DNA of 64,000 bases from an uncultured beta proteobacterium (GCA_963708855.1 CAVPUM010000003.1:50407-114406), one strand, 5' to 3'; counted from the stretch's first letter, positions 3,999-58,969 are shown. Program-made: numbers and translations. The notes: generated from the letters alone by a model not told the origin.

Positions 3999-4137
3999 CG
4001 TTGCCTGACCGGCGCAATCCGCCGCGATGTGCGTCGAGCTTGCGCCAGCGCAAACACCGCGATCCGCAACCGGGGCCGCTGCGGATAAGATGTGACGTTT
4101 CGTCGCACCACCGCTCGCCCCACCCCTGCTCCAAGGC

Positions 4138-5526: not shown

Positions 5527-6080
5527 ACCCCGCCAAACCCGATTCGCACGATCGAGCGCGCCTGTTGCTGGTCGACGACGATCGTGCGCTTTGCGAGGTC
5601 ATGGGACGGGCGTTCGCGGCGCGCGGATTCGACGTGGTCGCCGTGCACACGGTGGAAGACGCGATCCGCACGATCGACGGTGATCCGCCCGAGTTCGCAA
5701 TCGTCGACCTCAAGCTGCCCGACCATTCGGGCCTCAAGATCGTGTCTCACCTCAAGACGGCGGATGCCTGCACGCGCATCGTCGTGCTCACCGGGCACGG
5801 CAGCATCCCGACGGCGATCGAGGCGATCAAGCTCGGCGCGACGTATTACCTTACCAAGCCCACCGACGCCGACGCCGTGCTGGCGGCATTCGGACGGGAG
5901 GGTGGTGACGACGCCGTGCCGATCGACGCGAAGCCCATGAGCGTCGAACGCGTCGAGTGGGAGCATATCCAGCACGTTCTGCATGAGAACGGCGGGAATG
6001 TCTCCGCGACAGCGCGCGCGCTGTCGATGCACCGGCGCACGCTGCAACGCAAGCTCCTTCGCCGACCGGCGAAGGCCTGA
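5517..6080 (+). CDS. regA: RegA/PrrA/ActR-type response regulator
   Basis: Receiver domain (LLLVDDD, DLKLPD, LTKP) plus the near-invariant RegA HTH NVSATARALSMHRRTLQRKL. Confidence 0.88.
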   Translation: MPMNPAKPDSHDRARLLLVDDDRALCEVMGRAFAARGFDVVAVHTVEDAIRTIDGDPPEFAIVDLKLPDHSGLKIVSHLKTADACTRIVVLTGHGSIPTAIEAIKLGATYYLTKPTDADAVLAAFGREGGDDAVPIDAKPMSVERVEWEHIQHVLHENGGNVSATARALSMHRRTLQRKLLRRPAKA

Positions 6081-10923: not shown

Positions 10924-14628
<3,705 letters not shown>

Positions 14629-17223: not shown

Positions 17224-18351
17224 TAGCGCACCCTTGGCGCTGCGCGCCGTCCCTCCGAGAGGGACTTCGCGCCTTGGGCGGCCCGGCGGCGCCCACGCTT
17301 GCGCTGACGCGCTGCCGGCATTCGCGCCTTGGGACGGCCCGGCGGCTCATGCGCGCGCAGTGTGATCTCGCCGGAAAGGAACCGCGCGCGGCGCGGGCCG
17401 TCGGCGAGCACCAGCGCGCCGCTCGCATCGACGCCGGCCACCTTGCCGGTGACGCTCGCGCCGTCCGGCAGCAGCAGCCGCACCGCCTTGCCCTGGTACG
17501 CGTGGCGATGCTGCCACTCGGCGACGAACGGCGCAAAGCCCTCCTTCGCGTACAGGTGAAGGACCGTGGCGAGCTCGGCCAGCAGCGCGGCGAACAGCCG
17601 GTTGCGGTCGATCGGCGGGGCCTTTCGTCCGGCGATGGACGCGAGATCGGTGACCGGGACGGGAATTTCCTTGCGGGCGGCCGCGGGAACACGAACATTG
17701 AGGCCCACGCCGATGACGGTCGTCGTCGGACCGAGCGCGTCGCCGTTCAACTCGATCAGGATGCCGCCGACCTTGAGGTGGCGGTGGATGAGGTCGTTCG
17801 GCCACTTGAGCGCCACGTCCTTGAAGCCTTCGGCTTCGAGCGCGCGAACGACGGCGACGCCCACTGCAAGCGACAGCCCGGCGAGGAAGCCCGCGCCCTG
17901 CTCGAACTTCCAGCCCAGCGAAAACGTGAGGCTCCCGCCGGCGATCGCCGTCCACGCGCGTCCGCGCCGGCCGCGCCCAGCCGTCTGCCATTCGGCGGCA
18001 AGCGCGGTCTGGTGCACATCCCGGCGCTGCGCCCGCCGCATGAGCTCCGAGGAGGTCGATTCGATCTGGTCGACGACCTCGATCGCGATAGGCAACGGGA
18101 TTCCCCGCGCCACGGCCACCTCGGCGAGGGAGACTCCGGACTTTCTTGGCGTCGAGGAAATCCGGCGCCTCCAGCAGGCGGTAGCCGCGGCCCTTGATCC
18201 GCTCGAGGGCGAGGCCCGAGGTACCGGCATCCTTCAGGACCTGCGAAACGCGGGCGCGCGTCAACCCCACCTTGGCGGCGAGGTCCTCACCGGAATGGAA
18301 CTCTCCATCGGCAAGTTGGCGCAGCAGCGAGAATCCAAGCGGAGTGAGCAC
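17220..18351 (-). pseudogene. birA: bifunctional biotin-protein ligase/repressor BirA, one frame break
   Basis: N-terminal wHTH LLRQLADGEFHSGEDLA (GTG 18351), GRGRRGRAW loop, KWPNDL. Break near 18140. Basic C-terminal extension. Confidence 0.8.
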
Positions 18352-44271: not shown

Positions 44272-44348
44272 TCGATCTGACAGCTTTTTTGTCCAGGACA
44301 ACATCTCTGTCATCCCGGCCCGCAAACGACGATCGACGAAAGCCCGCC

Positions 44349-45092
44349 ATGTCAATGCTCCGCCCCTACCGGATCCCCCGTGCCGCGGCGTTCGCCGCGG
44401 CGCTGCTCGCCACGCCGGCACTCGCCACGCCCCGGCTCGATCATCTGATCGAAGTGCACCGCACCGAGGCGGCCACCACGACGTACGGCTTGCTCCGGGC
44501 ACGTCCGGCGCCCGGAGTCGACGTGCCGGCGGCGTCGGCAGGAACACCGTCGTTCGTGCAGGTCGCGATGGCGCTCGGCACGCCTGAGTCCTGCCCGACG
44601 CTCCTGCGCCACTCGTTCACTCCGGTCCAGGGCGGCGCGCCGCAGTCGCTCTGCCAGCACCAAGGCAAGGTGGTGCTCGTGGTCAACACCGCAAGCAAGT
44701 GCGGCTACACGTACCAGTACGAGGGTCTTGAGGCACTGTACCGCAAGTACAGGGACCGCGGGCTCGTCGTGCTGGGGTTCCCGTCCGACGAATTCGGCGA
44801 TCAGGAGCCCGGCTCGAACAAGGAGATCGCCGAGTTCTGCCGCACCGTCTACGGCGTGCAGTTCCCGATGTTCGAGAAGGCGAGCGTGACGCGCATCGAC
44901 GCGAACCCGCTGTACGCCGAGCTCGCGGCGAAGACCGGCCAGAGGCCGCGCTGGAATTTCCACAAGTACCTGATCGACCGCTCCGGCACGCGAGTGGCGA
45001 GCTTCGGCAGCAACGTCGAGCCCGGCGGCCACGAGTTCGTGACGCAGATCGAGCGGCTGCTCGCCGAAAAGCCGCCCGCGAACAGGACCTGA
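44349..45092 (+). CDS. glutathione peroxidase family protein with signal peptide/N-terminal extension
   Basis: VVNTASKCGYT (Cys, not Sec), LGFPSDEFGDQEPG, WNFHKYLI. ATG 44349 gives the leader MSMLRPYRIPRAAAFAAALLATPALA. Confidence 0.85.
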   Translation: MSMLRPYRIPRAAAFAAALLATPALATPRLDHLIEVHRTEAATTTYGLLRARPAPGVDVPAASAGTPSFVQVAMALGTPESCPTLLRHSFTPVQGGAPQSLCQHQGKVVLVVNTASKCGYTYQYEGLEALYRKYRDRGLVVLGFPSDEFGDQEPGSNKEIAEFCRTVYGVQFPMFEKASVTRIDANPLYAELAAKTGQRPRWNFHKYLIDRSGTRVASFGSNVEPGGHEFVTQIERLLAEKPPANRT

Positions 45093-45093
45093 C

Positions 45094-46410
45094 ATGCCAC
45101 GAGGAGACGAAGCCGGGCAGCGGCAGCGGATTGCCATCGTCGGGTCGGGCATCGCCGGGCTGGGCACCGCGTGGCTGCTCCACAAGCAGGGTCACGCGGT
45201 CACGGTGTTCGAAGCGGAGCCCCGGGCGGGCGGACACACGCACACGGTCGACGTGACGCTCGAAGGCATCACGCACCCCGTCGACACCGGCTTCCTGGTG
45301 TTCAACGACCGCACCTATCCGCACCTGGTCGGGCTCTTCGCGGAACTCGGCGTGCCGAGCGTCGCATCGGAGATGTCGTTTTCCGTGCGCGACGACAGGA
45401 CCGGCCTCGAATGGGCGGGCACGAACCTCGCCACGCTGTTCGCGCGCCCGGCGAACGCGGTCTCGCCCGCGTTCTGGTCGATGCTCGCGGACATCCTGCG
45501 CTTCAACAGCGAGACCACCGCGGCGTTCGCCGCGGGCACACTGCCCTCGACCACGCTCGGCGCGTACCTCGACGCCAAGCGCTACCGGCGGCCGTTTCGC
45601 GACGGCTACCTCGTCCCGATGGCGGCGGCGATCTGGTCGTCGCCGGCGCGCGAGATCCTCGACTTCCCGCTGCCAACGTTCGTGCGCTTCTGCCACAACC
45701 ACGGCCTGCTCACGATCGACGACCGCCCGCTCTGGCGCACAGTTCGGGGCGGCGGCCGCGTGTACGTGGACGCGATCGTCGCACGGCTGCCGGACGTGCG
45801 CCTCGGCTGCCCGGTGCGGCAGGTGCATCGTCACGGCGACACGGTCATGATCGACTCGTCTGCGCACCGCGGCGAGCGCTTCGACGGCGTCGTGCTCGCC
45901 TGCCACAGCGACCAGGCGCTCTCGCTACTCGCCGTACCCTCGGCCGACGAGCGTCGGCTCCTGTCCCAGGTGCGCTACCAGCCGAACCGCGTCGTGCTGC
46001 ACACCGACTCCGCGCTGCTGCCGCGCCGCCGCCGCGCGTGGGCGGCGTGGAATTGCCTCGCCGCCGCCGACCTCGACCGCCGGCGCCCGGTGTCGGTGTC
46101 GTATCTCATCAACAAGCTGCAGCCAGTGCCGTTCCGCGCACCGGTGGTCGTCACACTTAACCCCGCGATTGAGCCCGATCCGCACACGGTGATCGGTGAA
46201 TTCGAGTACTCGCATCCGCTGCTGGACACCCACGCGGTCGCGGCGCAGGATGCGATCGCGCGCCGACAGGGCCGGCACCGCACGTGGTACGCCGGCGCGT
46301 GGCTGGGCTATGGCTTCCACGAGGACGGCCTCCGGTCCGCACACGCGGTCGCCGCGAGCATCGCGGAGCACGCCGCCCGCCGCGGCGAGCCGGTGCGCGT
46401 CGCCGCCTAA
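45094..46410 (+). CDS. FAD-dependent oxidoreductase (amine-oxidase-like; UfaD-type neighbour of DUF1365)
   Basis: IAIVGSGIAGLGTAWLL dinucleotide fold. Intact 438 aa. ATG follows the gpx stop by 1 nt. Confidence 0.8.
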   Translation: MPRGDEAGQRQRIAIVGSGIAGLGTAWLLHKQGHAVTVFEAEPRAGGHTHTVDVTLEGITHPVDTGFLVFNDRTYPHLVGLFAELGVPSVASEMSFSVRDDRTGLEWAGTNLATLFARPANAVSPAFWSMLADILRFNSETTAAFAAGTLPSTTLGAYLDAKRYRRPFRDGYLVPMAAAIWSSPAREILDFPLPTFVRFCHNHGLLTIDDRPLWRTVRGGGRVYVDAIVARLPDVRLGCPVRQVHRHGDTVMIDSSAHRGERFDGVVLACHSDQALSLLAVPSADERRLLSQVRYQPNRVVLHTDSALLPRRRRAWAAWNCLAAADLDRRRPVSVSYLINKLQPVPFRAPVVVTLNPAIEPDPHTVIGEFEYSHPLLDTHAVAAQDAIARRQGRHRTWYAGAWLGYGFHEDGLRSAHAVAASIAEHAARRGEPVRVAA

Positions 46411-46427
46411 CTCCGGACCCGCGTGCG

Positions 46428-47249
46428 ATGACCCCCCGCCTCGCCACGGACGTGACCATGCCCGGCGCGCATGCGTCGCTTGGCGCTGCCGGCCCCGCAC
46501 TGGTCGAGGGGCAGGTGATGCACCGGCGCACGCGCCCGGCGCAGAACGCATTCATCTATCCGGCGTTCTGCCTGCGACTGCCGCTGTCGCGCCTCGATGC
46601 GCTGCACGGGCTGGGCATCGCGCACAACAGGTGCGGCCTGCTGTCGTTCCACGACCGCGACCACGGGGCGCGGGACGGCTCGCCGCTCGAGAGCTGGACC
46701 CGTGCCCTGCTTGCGCGCGAGGGCATCGACGCCCCGGGCGAGGTCGTGCTGCATGCCTTCCCGCGCATGCTGGGCTATTTGTTCAACCCCGTGAGCTTCT
46801 GGGTGTGCCACGACGCGGCCGGCCGTGTCTCCGCCGTGCTCGCGGAGGTCAACAACACGTTCGGCGAGCGCCACCTCTATCTGGTCGCCCACCCGGACGG
46901 CCGCGCGATCGCGGACGGCGCGACGCTCGAGGCGCGCAAGGTGTTCCATGTGTCGCCGTTCTGCGAGGTGCGCGGACATTACGCGTTCCGGTTCCACTTC
47001 GGCGCCGACCGCTGGCTCGCGCGCATCGACTACTTCGACGGCGACGGCGACGCGCCGCTGATCGCGACGTCGATCTCCGGCACCGTGCGCCCGCTGACCC
47101 GCGGGCGCGCGCGCGCGCTGCTCGCCCGCTATCCCGCGTTCACCCTCGGCGTCGTCGCCCGCATCCACTGGCAGGCGGCGAAGCTGTGGGCGAAGCGCGT
47201 GCCGTTTTTCGCCAAGCCCGAACCGCCCGCGTCGCTCCTCTCCCGCTGA
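46428..47249 (+). CDS. DUF1365 family protein (UfaO-type)
   Basis: HRRTRPAQNAFIYPAFCLRLPL, LLSFHDRDHG, LGYLFNPVSFWVCHD, AEVNNTFGERHLY. Start ATG 46428 (46458 possible). Confidence 0.8.
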   Translation: MTPRLATDVTMPGAHASLGAAGPALVEGQVMHRRTRPAQNAFIYPAFCLRLPLSRLDALHGLGIAHNRCGLLSFHDRDHGARDGSPLESWTRALLAREGIDAPGEVVLHAFPRMLGYLFNPVSFWVCHDAAGRVSAVLAEVNNTFGERHLYLVAHPDGRAIADGATLEARKVFHVSPFCEVRGHYAFRFHFGADRWLARIDYFDGDGDAPLIATSISGTVRPLTRGRARALLARYPAFTLGVVARIHWQAAKLWAKRVPFFAKPEPPASLLSR

Positions 47250-47251
47250 CC

Positions 47252-48496
47252 ATGTCCACTCTCGACCGCCACCTCTCGTTCCCGCCGGGAATCGCGCCGC
47301 TCGCGAAGCCGCGACGTGTCCACCGTGTGCCGCCCAGCGGCCGTGTGCTCCTCGCCCTCCTCGCCCGCCTCGAGCGCGGCGCGATCGTCGTCGAGACGCC
47401 CGGCGGCGGCGCCGCGCGCTTCGGCGACCACGACGGCAGTCCGGTCGTTCTGTCGATACGGGACTGGCGCGTCGCGCGCGACACGCTGCAACGCGGCGAC
47501 GTCGGCTTCGCCGAGGGCTACATCGCCGGCCACTGGGACACGCCCGATCTCGTCGGCCTGCTCACGCGCCTCGCGGAGAACCAGCCGGCGCTCGAGCGCG
47601 CGTTCTACGGCCGCCGCGCCGCGATGCTGATGCTGCGCCTCCGGCACTGGCTCAACGCCAACACCAGGCGGCAGGCGCGCAGAAACATCGTCGCCCACTA
47701 CGACCTCGGCAACGACTTCTACCGGCTGTGGCTCGACGAGTCGATGACCTACTCGTCGGCGTGCTTCGACGGCAACCTGGCGGCGCCGCACGCGGCTGCC
47801 CAGCAGGCGAAGTACGCGCGCATCCTCGCCGAGCTCGCGCTGCCTTGCGGCGCGCACATCCTCGAGATCGGCTGCGGCTGGGGCGGGTTCGCAGAGGCCG
47901 CGGCGCGCGCGGGCTACCGCGTGACCGGGTTGTCGCTCTCCCAGGCGCAGACCGCCTGGGCGCGCGATCGCCTCGCGCGCGCGGGGCTTGCGGACCGCGT
48001 CGACTTCCGTATCGAGGACTATCGCGACCACCGCGGCAGCTACGACGGCGTCGCCTCGATCGAGATGTACGAGGCGGTCGGCGAGCGCTGGTGGCCCGCC
48101 TATTTCGCGAAGATCCGCGACGCGCTCGTGCCGGGCGGTCGCGCCTGCGTCCAGGGGATCACGATCGCCGAGTCGCGCTTCGAGCGCTACCGTCGCGAAA
48201 CCGACTTCATCCAGCAGTACATATTTCCCGGCGGCATGCTCGCCTCGCCCTCGCGGCTTGTCGCAGAGGCGCAGGCCGCAGGCCTGGCCCCCGTTCGCCA
48301 GCATCGCTTCGGGCGCGATTACGCGGAAACGCTCACGCGCTGGCTCGCAGCGTTCGAAGCGAACACCGCGGCGATCCGCACCCAGGGCTTCGACGAGCGC
48401 TTCGTCCGCTGCTGGCGCTTCTACCTCGCGTACTGCGCCGCGGGTTTCCTCACGGAGTCCACCGATGTCGGCCACTACACGTTCGCTCGCCCGTAG
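47252..48496 (+). CDS. cyclopropane-fatty-acyl-phospholipid synthase family SAM methyltransferase
   Basis: HYDLGNDFYRLWLDESMTYSSA, ILEIGCGWGG, SIEMYEAVG, YIFPGGMLAS. 414 aa. Confidence 0.88.
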   Translation: MSTLDRHLSFPPGIAPLAKPRRVHRVPPSGRVLLALLARLERGAIVVETPGGGAARFGDHDGSPVVLSIRDWRVARDTLQRGDVGFAEGYIAGHWDTPDLVGLLTRLAENQPALERAFYGRRAAMLMLRLRHWLNANTRRQARRNIVAHYDLGNDFYRLWLDESMTYSSACFDGNLAAPHAAAQQAKYARILAELALPCGAHILEIGCGWGGFAEAAARAGYRVTGLSLSQAQTAWARDRLARAGLADRVDFRIEDYRDHRGSYDGVASIEMYEAVGERWWPAYFAKIRDALVPGGRACVQGITIAESRFERYRRETDFIQQYIFPGGMLASPSRLVAEAQAAGLAPVRQHRFGRDYAETLTRWLAAFEANTAAIRTQGFDERFVRCWRFYLAYCAAGFLTESTDVGHYTFARP

Positions 48497-49031
48497 CGCG
48501 CTCGCGCTCTGCGCCACCGCCACGCTCGCCGTCGGCGCCGCCTTGGCGATGGGCAAGGTCTCGCCTCCACCCCTGCCCGACCCGGTCGCGGCGCTCGCCC
48601 CGGACCTGCGGCCGCAGGGGGGTGGCGAGCTCAGGTACTTCGGCCTGTCGATCTACGACGGCTTCTACTGGAGCCCCGCCCCCAGCTTCTCGGTGACGCA
48701 GCCGTTCGCGCTCGATCTCCATTACCACCGCCACCTCAAGGGCGACGGCATCGCCGAGCGCAGCATCGAGGAGATCCGCAGGCTGGGCGTCGCCTCGCCC
48801 GACGAGCAATCGCGCTGGCACGACGCGATGCGGCGGATCTTCCCCGACGTGAAGAAAGGCGACCGCCTCATTGGCGTCAATGTCCCCGGACGCGGCGCAA
48901 AGTTCTTCCACAACGGCGCGCCGATAGGCGAGATCGCCGACATTGCGTTCGCACGCGCGTTCTTCGGCATCTGGCTCGATCCGAAGACGTCGCGACCGGA
49001 CTTCCGCCGGTTGCTCCTCGGCGAGCGCTAG
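48465..49031 (+). CDS. secreted chalcone-isomerase-like domain protein
   Basis: Leader MSATTRSLARSALALCATATLAVGAALA. FGLSIYDGFYW, FARAFFGIWL. 32-nt overlap with the cfa-family gene. Confidence 0.55.
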   Translation: MSATTRSLARSALALCATATLAVGAALAMGKVSPPPLPDPVAALAPDLRPQGGGELRYFGLSIYDGFYWSPAPSFSVTQPFALDLHYHRHLKGDGIAERSIEEIRRLGVASPDEQSRWHDAMRRIFPDVKKGDRLIGVNVPGRGAKFFHNGAPIGEIADIAFARAFFGIWLDPKTSRPDFRRLLLGER

Positions 49032-49042
49032 GATCTCAGGTC

Positions 49043-50383
49043 ATGCCGTCGAGCGCTCACGTTCCGGCATCGGCTGCGGCCGCCGCGCCCCGGCTCGCCG
49101 CCCCGATGCCGTACGGCAAGCCCGCGCAACGCCTGCCACTGCCCGCGCTCGTCGCGTACGGTGCGTTCGGCATGCCGCTCGCGATGGCGGCGCTGCCGCT
49201 GTACGTGCACCTGCCGCGCTTCTACGGCGAGCACCTCGGCGTGGGACTCGCCGCGCTCGGCGTGCTGCTGCTTCTGCTGCGCGTCGCCGACGGCCTCCTC
49301 GACCCGCTGCTCGGCGCATGGAGCGACCGCGGGCCGTCGCGCCGCGCGCTGATCGCGCTGTCGGCGCCGGCGCTCGCCGTCGGCATGATCGCGCTGTTCT
49401 CGCCGACGGTCGCGGGCGAGGGCGCGCTCCTCGCGTGGCTCGGCGTGTCGCTCGCGCTCGTCTATCTCGCCTTCAGCCTCGCGACGATCAACCACGGCGC
49501 GTGGGGCGCGGAGCTCGCGCACGATCCCGTCGAGCGCACGCGCATCACGGCTGTGCGCGAGGGCCTCGCGCTGCTCGGAGTCGTGGTCGCCAGCATTGCG
49601 CCGGGAATGCTCGGCGGCGCCGGCGGCGACGACGCCGGCCTGCCACGATTCGCGATCGCCTTCGCGGTGTTCACCGCATTCTGCCTCGCGCTGCTCTGGC
49701 GCGCGCCGCTTGCGCCGCGGGCCGACGCACGTCAGGGCACGATCTTCGCCAGCATGGCGAAGCCCCTTGCCGATCCCCTGTTCCGGCCGCTCGTCGCGGT
49801 GTTCCTCGCCAACGGCATCGCGTCGGCGATCCCGGCGACGCTCGTTCTCTTCTTCATCGCCGACGTGCTGCAGGCGGAATCGCGCCAGGGGTTGTTCCTC
49901 GCGCTGTACTTCGTCGCCGGCGCCGCCGGCATGCCGCTGTGGATCCGGCTCTCGGCGGCGGTCGGCAAGGTGCGCGGCTGGGCGATCGCGATGCTCGCCG
50001 CGACCACGGCGTTCGTCTGGGCTGCGCTGCTCGGGCCGGGCGACGTGACCGCGTTCGCGATCATCTGCGTGCTGTCGGGGCTCGCGCTCGGTGCCGATCT
50101 CGCGCTGCCGCCGTCGATCCTCGCCGACGTCATCGAACGCCGCGGCGCAATGCAGTCGACCGGTGCGTACTTCGGCGTGTGGACGCTCGTGACCAAGCTC
50201 AACCTCGCGCTGGCGGCGGGCATCGCATTGCCGCTCCTCTCCGCACTCGGCTACACCCCTGGCGCGACTGACGCGAAGGCGCAGGACGCGCTGGCCTTCG
50301 TCTATGCGGCCGTCCCCTGCGCACTCAAGCTCGTCGCCGTCGGCGCGCTCGTCTGGTTCGCCAAGCGCCAAAACAGAGGCTGA
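49043..50383 (+). CDS. MFS transporter (GPH-like)
   Basis: Intact 446 aa. 12 hydrophobic helices. DGLLDPLLGAWSDR loop motif. Confidence 0.75.
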   Translation: MPSSAHVPASAAAAAPRLAAPMPYGKPAQRLPLPALVAYGAFGMPLAMAALPLYVHLPRFYGEHLGVGLAALGVLLLLLRVADGLLDPLLGAWSDRGPSRRALIALSAPALAVGMIALFSPTVAGEGALLAWLGVSLALVYLAFSLATINHGAWGAELAHDPVERTRITAVREGLALLGVVVASIAPGMLGGAGGDDAGLPRFAIAFAVFTAFCLALLWRAPLAPRADARQGTIFASMAKPLADPLFRPLVAVFLANGIASAIPATLVLFFIADVLQAESRQGLFLALYFVAGAAGMPLWIRLSAAVGKVRGWAIAMLAATTAFVWAALLGPGDVTAFAIICVLSGLALGADLALPPSILADVIERRGAMQSTGAYFGVWTLVTKLNLALAAGIALPLLSALGYTPGATDAKAQDALAFVYAAVPCALKLVAVGALVWFAKRQNRG

Positions 50384-50386
50384 CTC

Positions 50387-50908
50387 ATGCTCAAATATGT
50401 GCTGATCGGCGCCGCCGCGCTTTCGCTCGCCGGCTGCGCGACCGTCGACGTGGCGAACTACGCCTCCGAGCGTCCTGCGCTCGACCTCGCCGAGTACTTC
50501 AACGGCACGGTCGACGGCTGGGGCATGTTCCAGGACCGCTCGGGCAAGGTCGTGCGCCGCTTTACGGTGCGCATCGATGCGAAATGGGAAGGCAACCGGG
50601 GTACGCTCGACGAGCAGTTCGAGTTCGCGGACGGCGAGAAGCAGCAGCGCGTCTGGACCCTGGTAAAGGACGGCGACCGCTATTCGGGCACCGCCGGCGA
50701 CGTCGTCGGAACGGGACACGGCATCCAGCAGGGAAATGCGTTCAACATGCGCTACGTGCTGCAGGTGCCGTGGTCGGGATGGGCGATCGACGTCGACATG
50801 GACGACTGGATGTGGCGCATCGACGACAAGACCGTGCTCAACCGCACAGTGATGAGCAAGTTCGGCTTCCGCGCCGGTGAAGTGACGCTCTCGTTCCGCA
50901 GGCGCTAG
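50387..50908 (+). CDS. DUF3833 family lipoprotein
   Basis: Lipobox LSLAGC. YFNGTVDGWGMFQDRSGKVVRRFTV...W..G.LDE.F.F.DGE pattern. Confidence 0.7.
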   Translation: MLKYVLIGAAALSLAGCATVDVANYASERPALDLAEYFNGTVDGWGMFQDRSGKVVRRFTVRIDAKWEGNRGTLDEQFEFADGEKQQRVWTLVKDGDRYSGTAGDVVGTGHGIQQGNAFNMRYVLQVPWSGWAIDVDMDDWMWRIDDKTVLNRTVMSKFGFRAGEVTLSFRRR

Positions 50909-53026
50909 GGCCTGCTCACGACAACCCTCTCGGCATTCCCGCCCCGGGCACCGGTTCGCTTTTTCGGCGGCTTCACCTTCGCCTTGTCCGCCGCAGCCTT
51001 TGGCGCGCGCGGCAAGCGCCAGCCTGCGCACGCGCCGGATGTCCGCATCCGAGAACGGCCCGTTGACGCCGGAGATGGCCGCGAGCTTCATCCCGTGCTT
51101 GCGGCCGAGACGATAGATCTCGCGCACCTTCTCCCATTCGATGTTGCGGCCGACGGTGAAGTTGTCGAACTTTCCCTCCAGGGCGAGGACAATCGTTTCG
51201 GCGAGGCAGGCATAGGCCACGTTCCTGGGTAGCCCGATGTTCTTCATCGACACCTGCCCGGGCAGCAGGATCTCGCCGGACTCGATCACCAGCACGTCCG
51301 GACGCTTGGCCACTTCCTCCGGCGGCAGATCGAGCGGGCGCGCGACGTCGGTGATCACGCATCCGGGCTTGACCTGCATGATGTCGAGGATCTTCTTGCC
51401 GGCCCCCGAGGTCGCGGTCACGATCATGTCCATGCCGGCGATGTCCGTGTCGGCGCGCGAGGACAGGAACAGCCTGGCGTCGGGGGTCTCCTTCAGGATC
51501 GACCCCTTGAGCGAGAGCAGCTTCGCGGTTTCGGGAGACACCAGGTAGACCTCCTCGGCGACCATCGCCAGCAGGCGCGCGCAGACCGAGCCGATGGCCC
51601 CGGTGGCGCCCACCACCATCGCCTTGAAGCGCACTTTCTGACCGCGCGCCGGCATGGGCACCAGGCCGAGGCGCAGCACGGCATCGTGCGCGGCCCACAG
51701 CGCCCCCGAGGCGCTGTAGCTGTTGCCGGTGGTGATGGGCAGCGGCGCGCGCTTGGACACGGTGAGCCCCGCGTCGCCGACCACCTTGGTGAAGGCGCCG
51801 AGGCCCATGATCTGCGCACCGAGGCTCTTGGCGATCCCGGCGGCGTCCAGCAGGCGGCGGTAGGTGAACTCCGGGTTGTGGCTCATGATTTCCTGGGGCG
51901 TGCCGCCCACGGAGATGAGCCAGCCTTCGGCTTCCACGCCGGTGGGCGACTTGATGCCCGTCACCTTCGAATAGACGAACGGCGGCGCGTAGGCCATCAC
52001 TTTCTCCACCGCGTCCATGAAGATGGGCGGGGACACGTGGGAAAGCAGCTCGATGGGCTTCACGTTCTTGAAATACTCCTGCGACAGCGGATGGATGACG
52101 AAGGCGAACCGGTTGACGCGCTTGAAGCCGTTGGGATAGACGATCCGCGGCTCCAGCTCGAGGCTGGTGATGATCTCCAGATAGTCGTCCTCGAGGATCT
52201 CCGCGGGCGCCTTCTCGGTCGCGGCGATGATCATCGCGTCGAGGAGGCTCGGGCTCAGCACGTGATCGAACATCACGGGCGCGCCGTCGACCACCATGTT
52301 GACGCCCTTCTTCCTGAACTGCGCGATGCGCCCGTCGTTCACCGTCGACGTGACGATCGTCTTGCCGGCGAGCTCCTCGGCGGCAAAGCCGTCCAGCTCG
52401 TGCACGGGGGCGACGATGACCGTCGCATCCCGCATGGCCTGGCGCAGCACGAACTTCGTCCACGCCTTGACCGGGGCCGACGACATCAGGCCGTCGGGGG
52501 CCCAGTCGAGCACGTAGTGCGCGCCGCTGGTGTAGAGCTCCAGCGCCTCCAGCGAGGTCAGCATCTTGGGCACGCCGAGCTGCAGCAGGGCGTCGGCGAA
52601 CTCGAGATTCTGCGTGTACTCGGACATGGCCAACGCCAGCTTGTAGTTGGTTCGTCCCGAAAAGAACAGGACGCGGGCGTTGTTGAAATAGTCGCCCAGC
52701 TTGATCTGGACGTGGCGCAGCGCCCACTCCTGCAGGATGTCGTTCAACCGTCCGCCGGTGGTCACGGGAACGCGCGTGACGGCATTCTTCATCCGCGCGC
52801 TGTCCTTCTCGACATAGCGCCGCGATCCGACCGCATAGCTGTCCTTGACCACACCCAGGCCGATCGCGTCGGCATGCTGTTCCCAGTGCTTCAGCAGGTT
52901 CACGGCCTTCGCGGTGCTGCCGTTCGTGCCCAGCCTCCGGACGTCGAGTTTCTGCCGCAGGAACCGGGCGACGAAGGCGAAATCCTGGTCGCCCGCACCC
53001 AGGCTGACACCGATCACTTTTTTCAT
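50905..53026 (-). pseudogene. fusion protein: N-terminal uncharacterised 'quinate 5-dehydrogenase'-annotated domain + C-terminal acyl-ACP reductase (AAR)-like domain; one frame break near 50995
   Basis: ATG 53026. The C-terminal half aligns with cyanobacterial AAR (FAFVIHPLS, GLGAFTKVVG, TTGNSYSA, VVGATGAIGS, YACLAETIVLALEG..NFTVGRN). The main frame never stops (runs to 49028). A +1 shift gives ...AAADKAKVKPPKKRTGARGGNAERVVVSRP-TAG at 50905. Confidence 0.7.
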
Positions 53027-53200
53027 TCCATCCCCGCGCCATGCACGATGCCCAAGACGCTAGTGTACGGGGGCACTCCGGTCCCCGCGCCACCGCGAAT
53101 CTGCTCGAGATCAAACAGTTGACGAATGTTTCCGGCAGCGCTCTGGTCCGGCCGGCCCGATTGGTGCAATCTTGCAGGAAGTGAAACGCGAGACACGGGA

Positions 53201-54460
53201 ATGATGATGATCGAGGTGCCGGGCATCGTGAGTGACGTGGTGCGTTCCGTCGGGCTGTCGACGGCGATGAAAGCGGCGGGCGTCGTGACGGGGCTGTTGC
53301 CGATTCCGCAGCCGATGCTGCTGGTCGGACCGGGGGCCAGCGGCCGCCTGGGGCAGGCCCTCTGCGGCTTCGGGCACCGGAAGATCCTGGTCGTGACGGA
53401 CCGCACCATCGCGCAGATGGGACTGCTCGACGGCCTGACCAAGGCATTGTCCGCGGGCGGTACCGCGCACGTCGTCTTCGACGCGATCACGCCGGACGCC
53501 CCGATCCCGGTGATCGAAAAGGGCATCGCGTTCTACGAGAAGCACCGCTGCGACGCCGTCGTCGCGTTCGGCGGCGGCTCCCCGATGGACGCGGCGAAGA
53601 CGATTGCGTTGGCCGTCGCCAACAGGAAGCACCCCAGGAAGCTCGTCGGCTACTTCAAGGGCCTCCGTGCGCCGGCGCCGATCTATGCCGTCCCGACCAC
53701 GGCGGGCACCGGTTCCGAGGTGACCGTGGCCGCGGTCGTCTCGGACCCTGAAACCAACCGGAAACTGGTCATCGCCGATACGCGCCTCGTGCCGACGATG
53801 GCAGCGCTCGATCCCTCGCTGATGACCGGCTTGCCACGCCACGTCACGGCCGCAACCGGCATGGACGCACTGACCCACGCCGTCGAAGCCTTCGTCGGCC
53901 AGTGGTCGACCGCCTACACCGATCGCATGGCGCTCGCGGCGGTCGGCATGATTTACGAGAACCTGCGCATCGCGTACAGGAACGGCAGGAATCTCGCGGC
54001 GCGCGAGCAGATGGCGCTGGCGGCGACGTACGCCGGCCTGGCGTTCACGCGGGCCAACGTCGGTTATGTCCACGCCATCGCGCACCAGCTGGGCGGCAAA
54101 TACCACACGCCTCACGGCCTGGCCAACGCGATCATGTTGCCGCACGTGCTGGCGTTCCTGAGCCCCGCGATCACGAAGAAGCTGGCCGTCCTCGCAGTGC
54201 GCGCCAAAGTAGGCAAAGCAGGCGAGCGGCCCGCCGTTCTGGCGAAGAAGTTCCTGGCCTCGGTCGAAACGCTGAATCGTGACCTCGGGATTCCGCGGCA
54301 TCTGGCGGCACTGCGCGAGGAGGACATTCCGGAACTGGCCAAGGCCGCCTGCTGGGAGGCGGACACCAACTATCCGGTGCCGCGCTACATGTCGCCGGAA
54401 ACCTGCGCGGATCTGATCCGCCAGGTCCTGCCCACGGCCGATCGGCGCAGGAAACGCTAG
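53201..54460 (+). CDS. iron-containing (group III) alcohol dehydrogenase
   Basis: FGGGSPMDAAK, PTTAGTGSE, GMDALTHAVE, HAIAHQLGGKYHTPHG. ATG 53201. Confidence 0.88.
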   Translation: MMMIEVPGIVSDVVRSVGLSTAMKAAGVVTGLLPIPQPMLLVGPGASGRLGQALCGFGHRKILVVTDRTIAQMGLLDGLTKALSAGGTAHVVFDAITPDAPIPVIEKGIAFYEKHRCDAVVAFGGGSPMDAAKTIALAVANRKHPRKLVGYFKGLRAPAPIYAVPTTAGTGSEVTVAAVVSDPETNRKLVIADTRLVPTMAALDPSLMTGLPRHVTAATGMDALTHAVEAFVGQWSTAYTDRMALAAVGMIYENLRIAYRNGRNLAAREQMALAATYAGLAFTRANVGYVHAIAHQLGGKYHTPHGLANAIMLPHVLAFLSPAITKKLAVLAVRAKVGKAGERPAVLAKKFLASVETLNRDLGIPRHLAALREEDIPELAKAACWEADTNYPVPRYMSPETCADLIRQVLPTADRRRKR

Positions 54461-54485: not shown

Positions 54486-55556
54486 TCATCGGCCCGGCCG
54501 GGGTGGTGGCCTCACGGCGCGGCCGCCGGCTGCGAGCCGGCGCGTCTCGCCGATCTTCAGCACGTCGAACTGATCCGGCGTGAGTCCGCGCTCCTGCCGC
54601 TGCCGGGCGAGCACGATGGGCGGCTCGTCCAGCGGCTCGTCGGCGAGCGACTCGAACGTGCCCCAGTGCATGCCGATCGCGCGCGCTGCCTTGAGGTCGG
54701 CGCGAACCTGCACGGCTTCGGGAACGTCGACGTGCATCACTTTCATGAACCAGCGCGGAGCGTACGATCCGATGGGGATGAAGGCCATGTCGAAAGGGCC
54801 CAGACGCTCGCCGATGTCGCGAAAATCCTTCGAATAGCCGGTGTCGCCCGTGTGGATGAGCCGAAGCCCCTCGCCTTCGACGACCCAGCCGCCCCAGAGC
54901 GTCTGGTTGGCGTCGTCGAGCCTGCGCTTGCTCCAGTGCTGCACCGGCACGAACGTCACGCGAAGATCGCCCTCGGCGTCTCCTGCCACCAGTCGTATTC
55001 GTCGACACGCGTGATGCCGAGGGTGGCGAACCAGGCCTTCAGTCCAAGCGGGACGAGAAAGCGCGGACTGCCCTGCGGCATGGCGGCAAGCCGCGTCACC
55101 GACTCGAGCGTCGAGGTGGTCGTAGTGGTTGTGCGAGATCAGCACGACATCTATCCGCGGCAATTCCGGAATGTCGATGGGCAGGGGCACGATGCGTTTC
55201 GGGCCCGCGAAGCCCACCGGCGACGCGCGTTCCGAGAAGATCGGATCGAAGAGAATGTTCTTGCCGGCGAGACGGACGAGCATCGTCGCGTGTCCGACCC
55301 ACGTCACCGACGGGTTGGCATCGGAGGCGCCAAGCGCGACGGGATCCGTTCGCACCGCCGGCAGGTTCCAGCCGCCCGGCGGCGGCTTCGGCAGCCCGTC
55401 CCGCATGCGCACCCACTGCCAGGACCAGAAGCTCTCCTTGTCGGGGTGCGGGTAGTTGTTGCGAAAGCCGTCCGGCCCCGTGGGCGCGGGCTGTGCCCAA
55501 GCAAAGCTCGCGCCGGTGGCAAGGAAATACACGGCGCAGGAAAGGAGGAGGCGCAT
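54486..55556 (-). pseudogene. secreted MBL-fold hydrolase (NAPE-PLD-like), two compensating frame breaks
   Basis: Signal peptide MRLLLSCAVYFLATGASFAWA. VTWVGHATML, ISHNHYDHLD, then ~45 out-of-frame residues, then VTFVPVQHWS, IHTGDTGY, MHWGTF. Confidence 0.75.
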
Positions 55557-55614
55557 CGGGTCAAGGTAGGATAGATTCCGCGGTGAGACGCACTCTAGCC
55601 GAGAATCGTTCCCG

Positions 55615-56418
55615 ATGGATAAAAGGCTCGACCGTGCCCGCGCGCTGCTGTCGGCCGCCAAGCGCGTTGCCGCGCTGACGGGCGCCGGCATCTCCGCCGA
55701 ATCGGGCATCCCCACGTTTCGCGACGCGATGAGCGCCGCCGGGCCGCCCCAAGGCGCTCGCCCCCCTGGGGGGGAGCGTCGCGAAGCGACGATCGGGGGG
55801 GATCACACCGCGGGGCTATGGTCGCAGTTCCGGCCCGAGGACCTCGCCACACCCGAGGCGTTCGCGGCGAACCCGAAGACGGTGTGGGAGTGGTACGCGT
55901 CGCGGCGCGAACGGGTGGCGAAGGTCGCGCCCAACGCGGGCCATCTTGCGCTCGCCGAACTCGAGCGGCGCACTCCCCACTTCACGCTCATCACGCAGAA
56001 TGTGGACGGGCTGCACGCGCGGGCCGGCAGCCGCCGCGTGATCGAGCTTCACGGCAACATCATGGTCGACCAGTGTTTCGCCGAAGGGCGCGTCCTGGCA
56101 CCGGCCGACCAGATTCCAGGAACGCCGCCGCGGTGCGCGCGGTGCGGCGCGCCCGTGCGCCCGGGGGTGGTCTGGTTCGGCGAAGCGCTGCCGCCGCAGG
56201 CGCTCGACGACGCTCTTGCCGCAACGGAGCGCTGCGACGTGTTCCTTTGCATCGGCACGTCGAACGTGGTCGAGCCCGCGGCGTCGTTGCCGTTCGCCGC
56301 GCTCGAGGCAGGCGCCGCGGTGATCGAGGTGAACCCCGCGCGCACACCGCTTTCAGCGCGGGCGACGATCGTGCTCACGGGTGCCGCGGGTGAAGTACTG
56401 CCGCAGCTGCTGCGTTAG
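55615..56418 (+). CDS. cobB: NAD-dependent protein deacylase (CobB/Sir2) carrying an in-frame ~26-aa insertion
   Basis: GAGISAESGIPTFRDA, QNVDGLH, ELHGN, Zn ribbon CARCG, CIGTS. The insertion lies between FRDA and GLW. Confidence 0.85.
   Translation: MDKRLDRARALLSAAKRVAALTGAGISAESGIPTFRDAMSAAGPPQGARPPGGERREATIGGDHTAGLWSQFRPEDLATPEAFAANPKTVWEWYASRRERVAKVAPNAGHLALAELERRTPHFTLITQNVDGLHARAGSRRVIELHGNIMVDQCFAEGRVLAPADQIPGTPPRCARCGAPVRPGVVWFGEALPPQALDDALAATERCDVFLCIGTSNVVEPAASLPFAALEAGAAVIEVNPARTPLSARATIVLTGAAGEVLPQLLR
55729..55812. repeat. GC-rich palindromic element inserted in-frame in cobB
   Basis: Same 18-nt head CGCCGGGCCGCCCCAAGG as the element at 31845. Hairpins CGCTCGCCCCCC-T-GGGGGGGAGCG and CGTCGC-GAA-GCGACG, then ATCGGGGGGG. 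Confidence 0.75.
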
Positions 56419-56421
56419 CGA

Positions 56422-57545
<1,124 letters not shown>

Positions 57546-57549
<4 letters not shown>

Positions 57550-58121
57550 CGCGGTTGTTCGCTCATCAGGAACTCACCCTCTTCCCATTTGGTCACGCCG
57601 TAGCGGGAAACGTTCACCTGCGGGCTCCAGAAATCCGCCGGCAGTCCCGCCTTGCGCTTCAGCGCCGCCAGGAAGCCGCGCGGGTCGGGGAGCGATTCCC
57701 ACACCTGGGGAAGGAACGTCGCGCGATGGTGGCCGTACTCGAGCACCAAGCCGTCGATGTCCGGGCGCAGCCGTGCGAGCAGGTCCGATTCGTCGCGGAC
57801 GTCAAGGCGCTCGTCGGCGGACAGCAGCGACACCTCGACCATGGTGGCCTCGAACTCGACGACGGCGAGCGGCGGAAAGCGAGGGTCGCGGAACGCGGCG
57901 GCGATCGCGTTTGCCCGGACGTCCACGCCGAGCGGACGCATGGGTTTCAGCGAGCCGATGCAGCCGCGTAACTCGCCCGCCAGCTTCAGCGTCACGAACG
58001 TGGCGGCAGGCTCCGTCAGCGCGGCATGGCTCGCTGCCGCGAACGGGCGCAAGCCGAGCTCCGCACCGATCGCCGAGCGGGCGATCGCCAGCAGCGCGCG
58101 GCCGAGATCAGGATCGTTCAT
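57546..58121 (-). CDS. AmmeMemoRadiSam system protein A (AMMECR1 domain)
   Basis: ATFVTLKLAGELRGCIGSL, FRDPRFPPL, ATFLPQVW. Confidence 0.85.
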
Positions 58122-58969
58122 GACGAGGCTCGCTGGTGTTGCGGGTCGGACCCGGGCTCGGCGAACGCGAACGCCGCATAGCCGACCACGCGCGACTTGT
58201 CGCCCGCGGTGTCTCCGGAGTTGCGCAAGTCGAGAAGCTCCGCCTGCATTCCGTGCCGGCGTGCCGCCAGCAGCAACCCGTTGATGGGCGTCGCGCCGCA
58301 GGCCTGCTCGTGATCGAGCGTGGCCGAGAGCGCGAGTATCGCCTCGCCGGTCGCGCGATCGATCTCGCGGGCGTCCGCGTAGCGGTGGTAGTGCGACAAA
58401 TCGGAGCTGACGACAATCAGAGTCTCCGGGCCACCCCAGAGCAACTCGACGACTTCGGCCACCTCGGCCGGTGTCGCGTCGCCGACAGCGAAGGGCACGA
58501 TGCTGAAGTTGGCAAGCACTGCCTGGAGGAAAGGTAGCTGCACTTCAAGCGAGTGCTCGAACGCGTGCGCCGCGTCGCTCGCGCGCACCTGCGGCAGTGT
58601 CAGCGCGGTGGCGGCGCTCTGGCGATCGACGTCCACGGTTCCCAGCGGCGTGGCGAATGCCCGCGCCGACGGCAGCGCGAGGCCGCGGATCGGCACGCGA
58701 TGTGTCGGCCCGAGCAGCACGACGCGCCGGATCGCGTCGCGCCCGGCGGCGAGCCGCGCGTACGCGGCAGCCGCGATCGGACCCGAAAAGGCATAGCCGG
58801 CATGCGGCGCGATCAGCGCCTTGGGAGCGGCGCCCACCGGCGAAATCCGGGATCTCGCCCCTGCGAGATGCGCGCGCACCTCCGCTGCCAGCGCCGACGG
58901 CGCATCGGAATAGAACATGCCGGCCACGGCGGCAGGACGTACATCAGGCATCGCATTGATCCCTTTCAT
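58118..58969 (-). CDS. AmmeMemoRadiSam system protein B (MEMO1 family)
   Basis: VAGMFY, IAPHAGYAFSG, EHSLEVQLPFL, VSSDLSHY, ACGATPI. Start ATG 58969 or 58951. Confidence 0.85.
   Translation of the reverse strand: MKGINAMPDVRPAAVAGMFYSDAPSALAAEVRAHLAGARSRISPVGAAPKALIAPHAGYAFSGPIAAAAYARLAAGRDAIRRVVLLGPTHRVPIRGLALPSARAFATPLGTVDVDRQSAATALTLPQVRASDAAHAFEHSLEVQLPFLQAVLANFSIVPFAVGDATPAEVAEVVELLWGGPETLIVVSSDLSHYHRYADAREIDRATGEAILALSATLDHEQACGATPINGLLLAARRHGMQAELLDLRNSGDTAGDKSRVVGYAAFAFAEPGSDPQHQRASS

Follow-up and report, generated by a model that had tools for sequence, protein, structure and literature searches.

A predicted acyl-thioester reductase fusion paired with an iron-containing alcohol dehydrogenase: a conserved two-gene module of soil betaproteobacteria

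What does a cell do with a two-part protein that resembles cyanobacterial acyl-ACP (acyl carrier protein) reductase (AAR) and is encoded back to back with an alcohol dehydrogenase? The question is raised by a 64,000-nucleotide stretch of DNA from an uncultured beta proteobacterium (GCA_963708855.1 CAVPUM010000003.1:50407-114406), here called the window. On it, the gene of a fusion protein of about 700 residues (the fusion) is transcribed away from the gene of a group III iron-containing alcohol dehydrogenase (Fe-ADH). The original prediction, made from the sequence alone, was that the pair performs a two-step conversion of an acyl-thioester to an aldehyde and then an alcohol, or the reverse. 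This proposal is supported by the invariance of the catalytic motifs, by a predicted AAR-type fold and by the presence of the Fe-ADH in 61 of 66 loci. In our judgement a reductive route from thioester through aldehyde to alcohol, probably on a hydrophobic substrate, has a little better than an even chance of being the correct explanation.

The thioester step would fall to the C-terminal half of the fusion. Residues 306-669 match positions 1-356 of the 837 in the NCBIfam model PigE (NF053554; E = 3.8e-52), and phmmer against PDB sequences returned PigE (4ppm, E = 7e-27) and AAR (6jzq, 6jzu and 6jzz, E = 8.5e-11 to 3.4e-09), the last of which is AAR-C294S. The original prediction had paired five motifs with AAR. 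Four of these pairs, from GLGAFTKVV onward, recur in the phmmer alignment to 6jzq (E = 8.5e-11), and the first (RFAFVIHPLS) is aligned by PigE 4ppm. The cysteine predicted at the acyl-accepting position is also in place: AYAC607LAET aligns with FAC294FAEA in AAR and with NGCMAET in PigE. Across 69 fused homologues (37-93% identity), C607, E610, T432, G434, N435 and S436 are invariant, as are G473, A474, T475, G476, I478 and G479 of the putative dinucleotide-binding loop. In AAR this Cys serves ping-pong reduction of a thioester to an aldehyde, and PigE's N-terminal domain has been given a new assignment as thioester reductase (PMC8341465; PMC10829540). The same geometry of Cys and Thr-Thr-Gly is described for the TAD domain, where the invariant Thr-Thr-Gly contacts the catalytic Cys (bioRxiv 10.1101/2024.10.28.620694).

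Structure prediction gives the same picture. An AF2 model of the full-length fusion, built from the 69 homologues, has a pLDDT of 87 and a pTM of 0.84, and its best PDB match by Foldseek is AAR 6jzu (E = 6.9e-18, TM 0.79 over 365 columns, 21-23% identity); the AAR-like TAD domain follows at TM 0.65-0.73. The sequence and fold features of the AAR/COG5322 superfamily are all found, namely a two-domain fold (α/β N-domain plus Rossmann C-domain), the catalytic Cys, the GxTGxIG loop and the T-T-G motif. Homology, fold and motif conservation are established at this level, and by sequence and predicted structure the C-terminal half is a member of the AAR/PigE (COG5322) thioester-reductase superfamily. 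As a separate observation, two divergent fusions, P0156 (…IAEAELTECIV…) and P0187 (…VAPASLCEAAV…), have no Cys at the catalytic position; they are possibly pseudo-enzymes or have a shifted nucleophile.

The partner gene is a group III Fe-ADH, as predicted. It begins with the ATG triplet run ATGATGATG at 53201, so the spacer that separates it from the fusion gene is 174 nt long. Against PDB relatives the protein scores E = 2e-73, with the motifs GMDALTHAVEA and YVHAIAHQLGG..H.PHG aligned, the metal-site motifs of the Fe-ADH family. Its nearest solved relatives are FucO, DhaT, methanol dehydrogenase and the C-terminal domain of AdhE, and it stays under every NCBIfam equivalog cut-off (ErcA 293.8 versus 550, E = 1.9e-87; FucO 302.1 versus 523). 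An N-terminal extension of about 30 residues precedes the canonical core and is also present in the orthologue at locus L001.

Does the pairing extend beyond the window? In a scan with one genome per species, 69 loci carried a close relative of the fusion (58-94% identity). All are metagenome-assembled genomes (MAGs), mostly of Betaproteobacteria/Burkholderiales, with ‘MFD’ MAGs supplying a large share of the nearest relatives; in MAG data, orthologues are also present in Rhodoferax-like strains. When these loci were searched by tblastn with the window neighbours, a divergent Fe-ADH adjoined the fusion in 61; three of the other eight have no upstream DNA, hence 61 of 66. Clustering of all flank open reading frames (ORFs) gave no third conserved gene, the next family (13 loci) being an antisense ORF inside the fusion gene. 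Two loci depart from the divergent order. In L055 (58% identity to the fusion) the Fe-ADH is co-directional and lies 50 nt upstream, and in L058, a Desulfobacterales MAG (59% identity), a 640-residue Fe-ADH at 4065-5987 (+) ends 14 nt before the fusion gene and carries a C-terminal SCP2 sterol/lipid-transfer domain. Because both keep the pair, the pairing survives changes in gene order and large evolutionary distance. The linkage is thus established, and fusion and Fe-ADH are a conserved two-gene module of soil betaproteobacteria. The co-occurrence survey that the original prediction called for favours it. This pairing, including co-directional operons in distant lineages, is the main new evidence here, beside the gene contexts found in other phyla; the proposed chemistry itself is unsurprising.

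The N-terminal half of the fusion is a different matter. The original prediction likened it to stand-alone proteins annotated ‘quinate 5-dehydrogenase’, and this likeness holds over the full length of these ~300-residue, NCBI-named proteins (~27% identity, E down to 1e-28). An exhaustive HMMER search with the N-terminal half returned 598 cluster representatives, consisting of 640-830-residue fusions in other lineages and ~300-residue stand-alone proteins, and a search seeded with a stand-alone member gave ~8000 proteins whose names, where given, are ‘quinate 5-dehydrogenase’ or ‘hypothetical protein’. Pfam and NCBIfam searches with the N-terminal half yielded no curated family, and comparison with PDB sequences gave no match even by profile. 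Neither the N-terminal half nor 46 stand-alone homologues matched a Pfam or NCBIfam model of shikimate/quinate dehydrogenase (AroE/YdiB), and judged by sequence the database name appears to be a misleading misnomer.

The AF2 model of the N-terminal half (pLDDT 86) has two α/β lobes, and its Foldseek matches are weak throughout (TM 0.3-0.5). The first group consists of folds like periplasmic binding proteins; the second combines a dehydrogenase-like N-domain with a Rossmann domain and includes TAD (0.51), AAR (0.45-0.48), malic enzyme, FolD and shikimate dehydrogenase, with AroE structures only at TM ~0.3. One residue, D145, is invariant in the alignments of both fused and stand-alone N-domains, and conservation in both reaches 90% or more, up to invariance, at S8, G10, G36, G91 and K222. 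In the model, D145 ends the second strand of a Rossmann-like β-α-β unit (residues 119-145). In Rossmann folds, this is classically where the acid that binds the adenosine ribose sits. The invariance of D145 and its Rossmann-type position in the model suggest that the domain binds a ligand or nucleotide and is not an inert linker. We also considered that the N-terminal half might be a degenerate duplicate of the C-terminal half and rejected this: hhalign of the family alignments gave a probability of 0.14%, the resemblance of fold is generic only, and with a negative profile-profile comparison a tandem duplication is not demonstrable.

In other lineages the two halves occur as separate genes. 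The stand-alone N-domain lies in a four-gene operon with a class-III aminotransferase, a START/Polyketide_cyc2 protein and an AAR-like reductase (L070, L071 and L073-L075; coordinates 3096-6906 in L070, 2909-6939 in L073 and 2609-6704 in L075, with further loci among L091-L163). This operon usually stands just before greA-lysS, in MAGs whose labels include Eremiobacterota, Armatimonadota and Actinobacteria. Its reductase is 36% identical to the C-terminal half of the window fusion and keeps the Cys, and its aminotransferase matches the aminotransferase portion of PigE at 1e-122, so that the operon resembles a PigE that has been split, with two parts added; it appears to be undescribed. The stand-alone N-domain was next to or near an AAR-like reductase gene in all five operons inspected, and such a gene lay within 5 kb in 55 of 80 metagenome loci, in both gene orders (33 of 46 where at least 1.3 kb was available on each side). 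Thus, in many reductases of this subfamily the N-domain is either fused or adjacent, and from these sequences the two parts appear to belong together.

Fusions of a second clade share ~40% identity with the window protein and occur in Chloroflexota, Acidobacteriota, Wallbacteria and Riflebacteria, often under the NCBI name ‘serine carboxypeptidase’, which looks like a mis-annotation. Here an extended SDR follows the fusion in L076, L077/78, L081 and L082 (these contexts span 8309-10571 in L076, 8229-10130 in L077, 7452-8576 in L081 and 3554-4672 in L082). The SDR of L077 resembles the FcrA/PRK07201 SDR family (E = 3.3e-88) and also matches the thioester-reductase R-domain model TIGR01746; that of L076 matches the PRK07201 and TIGR01746 models weakly. 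A PlsC-type acyltransferase comes after the SDR in L076 and L077/78, with a WS/DGAT further downstream in L076. In L079 (8240-9351) and L083 (7235-8477), phasin and PhaR-like genes follow the fusion instead, and L079 also has an aldehyde dehydrogenase nearby.

How might the module work? By analogy with AAR, the acyl group would pass from a carrier thiol (ACP or CoA) to Cys607 and the carrier would leave; NAD(P)H bound at GATGAIG would then reduce the acyl-enzyme to a free aldehyde, which the Fe-ADH would reduce to the alcohol. For the N-terminal half, the likeliest role is to take up a partner or ligand in its Gly-rich cleft; this could be an adenine nucleotide or the carrier. That the reductase core releases an aldehyde is suggested by its attachment, in different lineages, to an Fe-ADH, an SDR/R-type reductase or an aminotransferase, all of which consume aldehydes. 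A fatty or lipid-like acyl substrate is favoured, given that SCP2, START, PlsC, WS/DGAT and the FAR-like SDR are each concerned with hydrophobic molecules.

There are three other ways to read the pair. The strongest competitor, which we nevertheless think unlikely, would have the module act on a short or functionalised CoA thioester (hydroxyacyl-, succinyl- or lactoyl-CoA) to give diols or hydroxy-acids, possibly tied to polyhydroxyalkanoate (PHA). The nearest Fe-ADH models (lactaldehyde reductase, 1,3-propanediol dehydrogenase and 4-hydroxybutyrate dehydrogenase) and the phasin and PhaR genes of L079 and L083 point that way, as does L055, where a family-III CoA-transferase operon lies upstream of the pair and a gene like 3-hydroxyisobutyrate dehydrogenase downstream. 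The SCP2 fusion of the partner dehydrogenase and the START, PlsC, WS/DGAT and FAR-like SDR contexts argue for a lipid instead, and the characterised relatives take medium- to long-chain or polyketide acyl groups (PMC8341465; PMC10829540). Less likely again is that the route runs backwards, from alcohol through aldehyde to acyl-thioester, with the AAR-fold enzyme as an acylating aldehyde dehydrogenase and the pair as a functional counterpart of AdhE, PduQ/PduP or EutG/EutE. Here the direction of flux matters, which we infer solely from the behaviour of characterised AAR-family enzymes. An Fe-ADH with a thioester-forming partner is the classical pattern of alcohol catabolism, the nearest solved Fe-ADHs are often oxidative, and the aldehyde dehydrogenase near the L079 fusion would suit such a route. 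Elsewhere the partners are of a biosynthetic type (aminotransferase, PlsC, WS/DGAT), the flank ORFs include no conserved genes for CoA or ACP recycling or for transporters, and the characterised members of the AAR superfamily are all reductive (PMC8341465; PMC10829540).

The remaining alternative, to which we give the least credence, is that the C-terminal half is non-reductive, as has been proposed for TAD, or that the N-terminal half is the real second catalytic unit, of a dehydrogenase-like kind, with the Fe-ADH only loosely related or regulatory in the manner of ErcA. TAD structures match the model nearly as well as AAR does, TAD activity is not simple reduction (bioRxiv 10.1101/2024.10.28.620694), the Fe-ADH does match the ErcA model, and the best fold matches of the N-terminal half share a dehydrogenase-like two-domain architecture, its β-α-β unit ending in an invariant Asp. 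Yet in sequence the C-terminal half resembles the PigE reductase (E = 7e-27) far more than it does TAD (E = 0.025), the surveyed loci show no context of nonribosomal peptide synthetase (NRPS) or polyketide synthase genes, the ErcA score is well below its cut-off, and the N-terminal half has no canonical GxGxxG and no profile similarity to the C-terminal half.

The reductive thioester-to-alcohol route is the reading we prefer, and several findings weigh against it. The PigE model is matched at 177.7 bits against a cut-off of 850, its aminotransferase part being unmatched, and the cyanobacterial AAR model TIGR04058, matched by residues 343-647 (4.1e-17), is reached at 62.5 bits against 449.7; with scores so far under the curated cut-offs, the C-terminal half is a superfamily relative and an orthologue of neither. 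The Fe-ADH neighbour is absent in 5 of the 66 loci, the L055 context hints at small organic acids, and the fusion gene has a frame break as sequenced. For the N-terminal half, Pfam, PDB sequence and Foldseek searches detected no relative of characterised function. Finally, TAD indicates that an AAR-type fold may perform non-reductive chemistry (bioRxiv 10.1101/2024.10.28.620694). For the fusion itself, Pfam, NCBIfam and the literature yielded no family of established unrelated function; membership of such a family is what the original prediction had named as counting against it.

The frame break lies near the 3′ end of the fusion gene. The uncorrected minus-strand ORF starts at 53026 (MKKVIGVSLGAG...) and is free of stops to 49028, giving 1332 residues; it is protein-like for the first ~675 residues only, and the remainder is antisense to the genes of DUF3833 and the MFS protein. 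Read in the +1 frame, the sequence is ...KAAADKAKVKPPKKRTGARGGNAERVVVSRP* and ends at 50905. The closest homologue of the fusion, P0001 (gene L164; 707 residues, 94% amino acid identity), ends ...AAKTKPPKKRALARGSNAERAVRKARE, and since it ends alike, the +1 tail is the homologous one. A DNA alignment of the two genes has a single 1-nt gap, the extra window base lying in an AAA (minus)/TTT (plus) run at 50999-51001. Deletion of one base from this run restores the tail and the stop and gives a product of 706 residues, close to the ~700 predicted for 50905-53026. The original prediction had invoked a +1 shift near 50995 to restore a Lys-rich tail: the reconstruction stands, and the site moves to the homopolymer. 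As it had also proposed, the tail ends in a TAG that shares CTAG at 50905-50908 with the TAG stop of the convergent DUF3833 gene (50387-50908, +).

The frame break is probably a sequencing or assembly indel rather than biology, a reading favoured because other frame breaks exist in the window (in the MBL gene and in MetH). We rejected a programmed +1 frameshift or a long read-through protein, as homologues end in frame, the extra base sits in a homopolymer and indels occur elsewhere in the window. A homologue search with the fusion returned >5000 proteins, the best 120 of which are ~700 residues long and 82-94% identical. Lengths range from ~645 to 765 residues, mostly near 705, with in-frame ends, and identity exceeds 80% across betaproteobacterial genera and is ~40% to Chloroflexota and Acidobacteriota. 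A variable, positively charged tail rich in Ala, Arg, Lys and Pro is present in 119 of 119 betaproteobacterial homologues (median net charge +9). It is absent in about half of the second-clade fusions, some of whose tails reach 100-165 residues, and on these sequences the basic tail appears specific to the betaproteobacterial clade. One might speculate that it targets an anionic surface such as the membrane, the nucleoid or a granule; it resembles the histone-H1-like tails of PHA-granule proteins.

The 174-nt spacer (Table 1) contains no Rfam element and, by scan, no consensus sigma-70 site. Reading 60-nt upstream stretches by eye, we noted TACACT upstream of the fusion gene, and many orthologous spacers carry CGTACAAT at a similar place, which makes this box a plausible -10 element. 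The 11-nt direct repeat that had been predicted at 53031 and 53082, TCCCCGCGCCA, is present. As a conserved operator it was rejected: it is absent from ~60 orthologous spacers, and one copy overlaps the ribosome-binding site. The window holds three exact copies against 0.13 expected, and the third (18102-18112, +), far from the locus, fits a GC-rich chance word or a lineage-specific word rather than an operator.

Table 1. Positions in the window of the fusion gene, its predicted domains and motifs, the Fe-ADH gene and the elements between them.
Feature	Position	Strand	Basis or remark
Whole fusion gene	50905..53026	-	~706 residues once one base is removed; N-domain, AAR/PigE-type thioester reductase (predicted) and basic tail
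N-terminal half, residues 1-305, two-lobed α/β domain	52112..53026	-	No Pfam model; homologous to stand-alone proteins named ‘quinate 5-dehydrogenase’
C-terminal half, residues 306-672, COG5322/AAR/PigE-N type NAD(P)H-dependent thioester reductase domain (predicted)	51011..52111	-	NCBIfam, PDB, Foldseek
TTGN motif, T432-N435	51722..51733	-	Matches AAR TTGN and the invariant Thr-Thr-Gly of TAD
GATGAIG, residues 473-479, dinucleotide-binding loop (predicted)	51590..51610	-	Aligned to AAR GATGDIG
Cys607 codon	51206..51208	-	Aligned with acyl-accepting Cys294 of AAR; invariant in 69 fused homologues
TTT/AAA homopolymer with one extra base	50999..51001	.	Source of the frame break; 1-nt gap versus L164
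Basic Ala/Lys/Arg/Pro-rich C-terminal tail	50905..50998	-	+1 frame; matches P0001 tail (KPPKKR..ARG.NAER)
Divergent promoter spacer between fusion gene and Fe-ADH, 174 nt	53027..53200	.	Sequence
11-nt direct repeat TCCCCGCGCCA, copy 1	53031..53041	+	Overlaps the Shine-Dalgarno GGGGA of the fusion gene (minus strand)
TACACT, candidate -10 element of fusion gene	53062..53067	-	By-eye reading of 60-nt upstream stretches
11-nt direct repeat TCCCCGCGCCA, copy 2	53082..53092	+	Not conserved in orthologous spacers
Group III iron-containing alcohol dehydrogenase, 419 residues	53201..54460	+	PF00465 157.7 bits and PF25137 175.3 bits, above gathering scores

The pair had also been placed next to a lipid-modification cluster and a hydrolase resembling NAPE-PLD. 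The position is right; a functional link is not supported, the neighbours not being conserved: by tblastn in the 69 loci, DUF3833 and MFS genes were found in none, the MBL gene in one, SIR2 in one, radical-SAM in two and AMMECR1 in one. We therefore rejected a link to the CMAS/amine-oxidase/DUF3833/MFS cluster or to the MBL hydrolase: of the DUF3833, MFS and MBL genes used as queries, the MBL gene alone was found, in its single locus, with no other conserved flank ORF. The co-directional genes at 44289-50908 (+) encode a glutathione peroxidase, an FAD amine-oxidase-like protein, a methyltransferase resembling CMAS/cyclopropane-fatty-acid synthase, a chalcone-isomerase-like protein, an MFS_2 transporter and DUF3833, a set which resembles lipid-modification clusters of other proteobacteria. 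Of the methyltransferase ORF (46196-48496), only residues 491-759 form the CMAS domain, and the upstream part is probably mis-framed. On the other side, 56422-58969 (-) carries genes for a radical-SAM protein, AMMECR1 and Memo in succession (the AmmeMemoRadiSam trio); L020 likewise has a radical-SAM/AMMECR1 pair close to its Fe-ADH, and L061 has a radical-SAM fragment there.

Other genes of the window show irregular frames. The gene of the MBL-fold (NAPE-PLD-like) hydrolase at 54486-55715 (-) has two compensating shifts, at about 55105 and 54970: its frame is left after HNHYDHLD and resumed before LRVTFVPVQHWS, and the conserved stretch PRFLVPLGLKAWF...DWWQ between them lies in another frame. 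These two indels are most likely assembly errors. Methionine synthase (MetH) is represented only by separated fragments at 10927-12795 and 13596-14357 (-), and many gaps are left in the gene map of the window after GC3 filtering. The assembly appears to be indel-rich.

How does the module compare with known systems? With cyanobacterial AAR (TIGR04058; 6JZQ/6JZU) it shares the two-domain fold, the catalytic Cys, the TTGN, GATGxIG and GLG.FT motifs and presumably the ping-pong chemistry from thioester to aldehyde. The window protein differs in its 305-residue N-terminal domain and basic tail and in its betaproteobacterial host, and whereas the partner gene of AAR encodes an aldehyde-deformylating oxygenase, the fusion is flanked by DUF3833 and Fe-ADH. 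The nearest characterised relative in sequence is PigE, whose N-domain acts in the MAP pathway of prodigiosin (NF053554; 4PPM), alongside the TAm-AAR fusions KecF/PpKTFusion. In PigE-type proteins the thioester is reduced to an aldehyde that the next enzyme uses (PMC8341465; PMC10829540). These proteins are fused to a class-III aminotransferase, make amines and belong to secondary-metabolite clusters, whereas in the window the reductase is fused to the N-domain and paired with the Fe-ADH, with no biosynthetic gene cluster; the split operons of other phyla are closer to PigE than the window module is. The TAD of CarI, from the carmabin pathway (9E4U), shares with the fusion an AAR-like fold, the Thr-Thr-Gly motif and an invariant Cys, which in TAD lies beside the nicotinamide; unlike the fusion it is embedded in an NRPS and NAD-specific, and in sequence it is only marginally similar to the window protein (E = 0.025).

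A comparable logic of thioester, aldehyde and alcohol, in which a group-III Fe-ADH takes the second step, is seen in AdhE, PduP/PduQ and EutE/EutG, and the ADH domain of AdhE is a clear relative of the window Fe-ADH. In AdhE, PduP and EutE the aldehyde-forming partner has the aldehyde dehydrogenase fold, and that of the window has the unrelated AAR fold. With the folds of the thioester step unrelated, the module is an analogue and not a member of the AdhE/Pdu/Eut type. The stand-alone ‘quinate 5-dehydrogenase’ proteins differ from the fusion in being separate polypeptides of other phyla, linked to an AAR-like reductase gene. Our literature searches found no account of the fusion family or the split operon; only the PigE, TAm-fusion and TAD papers turned up.

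What would the module mean for these bacteria? Sought for biocatalysis, AAR-fold reductases open the way to fatty aldehydes, alkanes, alcohols and amines. To our knowledge, study has so far been confined to cyanobacterial AAR and a handful of secondary-metabolite fusions (PigE, KecF and TamH). The fusion family adds a large, strongly conserved branch of >5000 proteins, whose partner domain has no Pfam model and a misleading name, and the linkage to the Fe-ADH gives a directly testable two-enzyme hypothesis. Confirmation would assign a function to thousands of annotations of the ‘dehydrogenase’, ‘serine carboxypeptidase’ and ‘quinate 5-dehydrogenase’ kind and might show by what route fatty alcohols or related lipids are made in uncultured soil bacteria. 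A broader idea, which we put forward tentatively and hold to be doubtful, is that the N-domain and the AAR-type reductase form the core of one widespread, unrecognised system that makes lipid aldehydes in several bacterial phyla and has three exits: through Fe-ADH to an alcohol, through a FAR-like SDR plus PlsC, joined in one locus by a WS/DGAT further downstream, to fatty-alcohol-derived, wax or ether-type lipids, and through aminotransferase plus START to long-chain amines. If this were true, the N-domain would be a new partner that binds a nucleotide or carrier and that AAR-fold catalysis needs, and the betaproteobacterial module would be a previously unrecognised route to fatty alcohols in soil bacteria.

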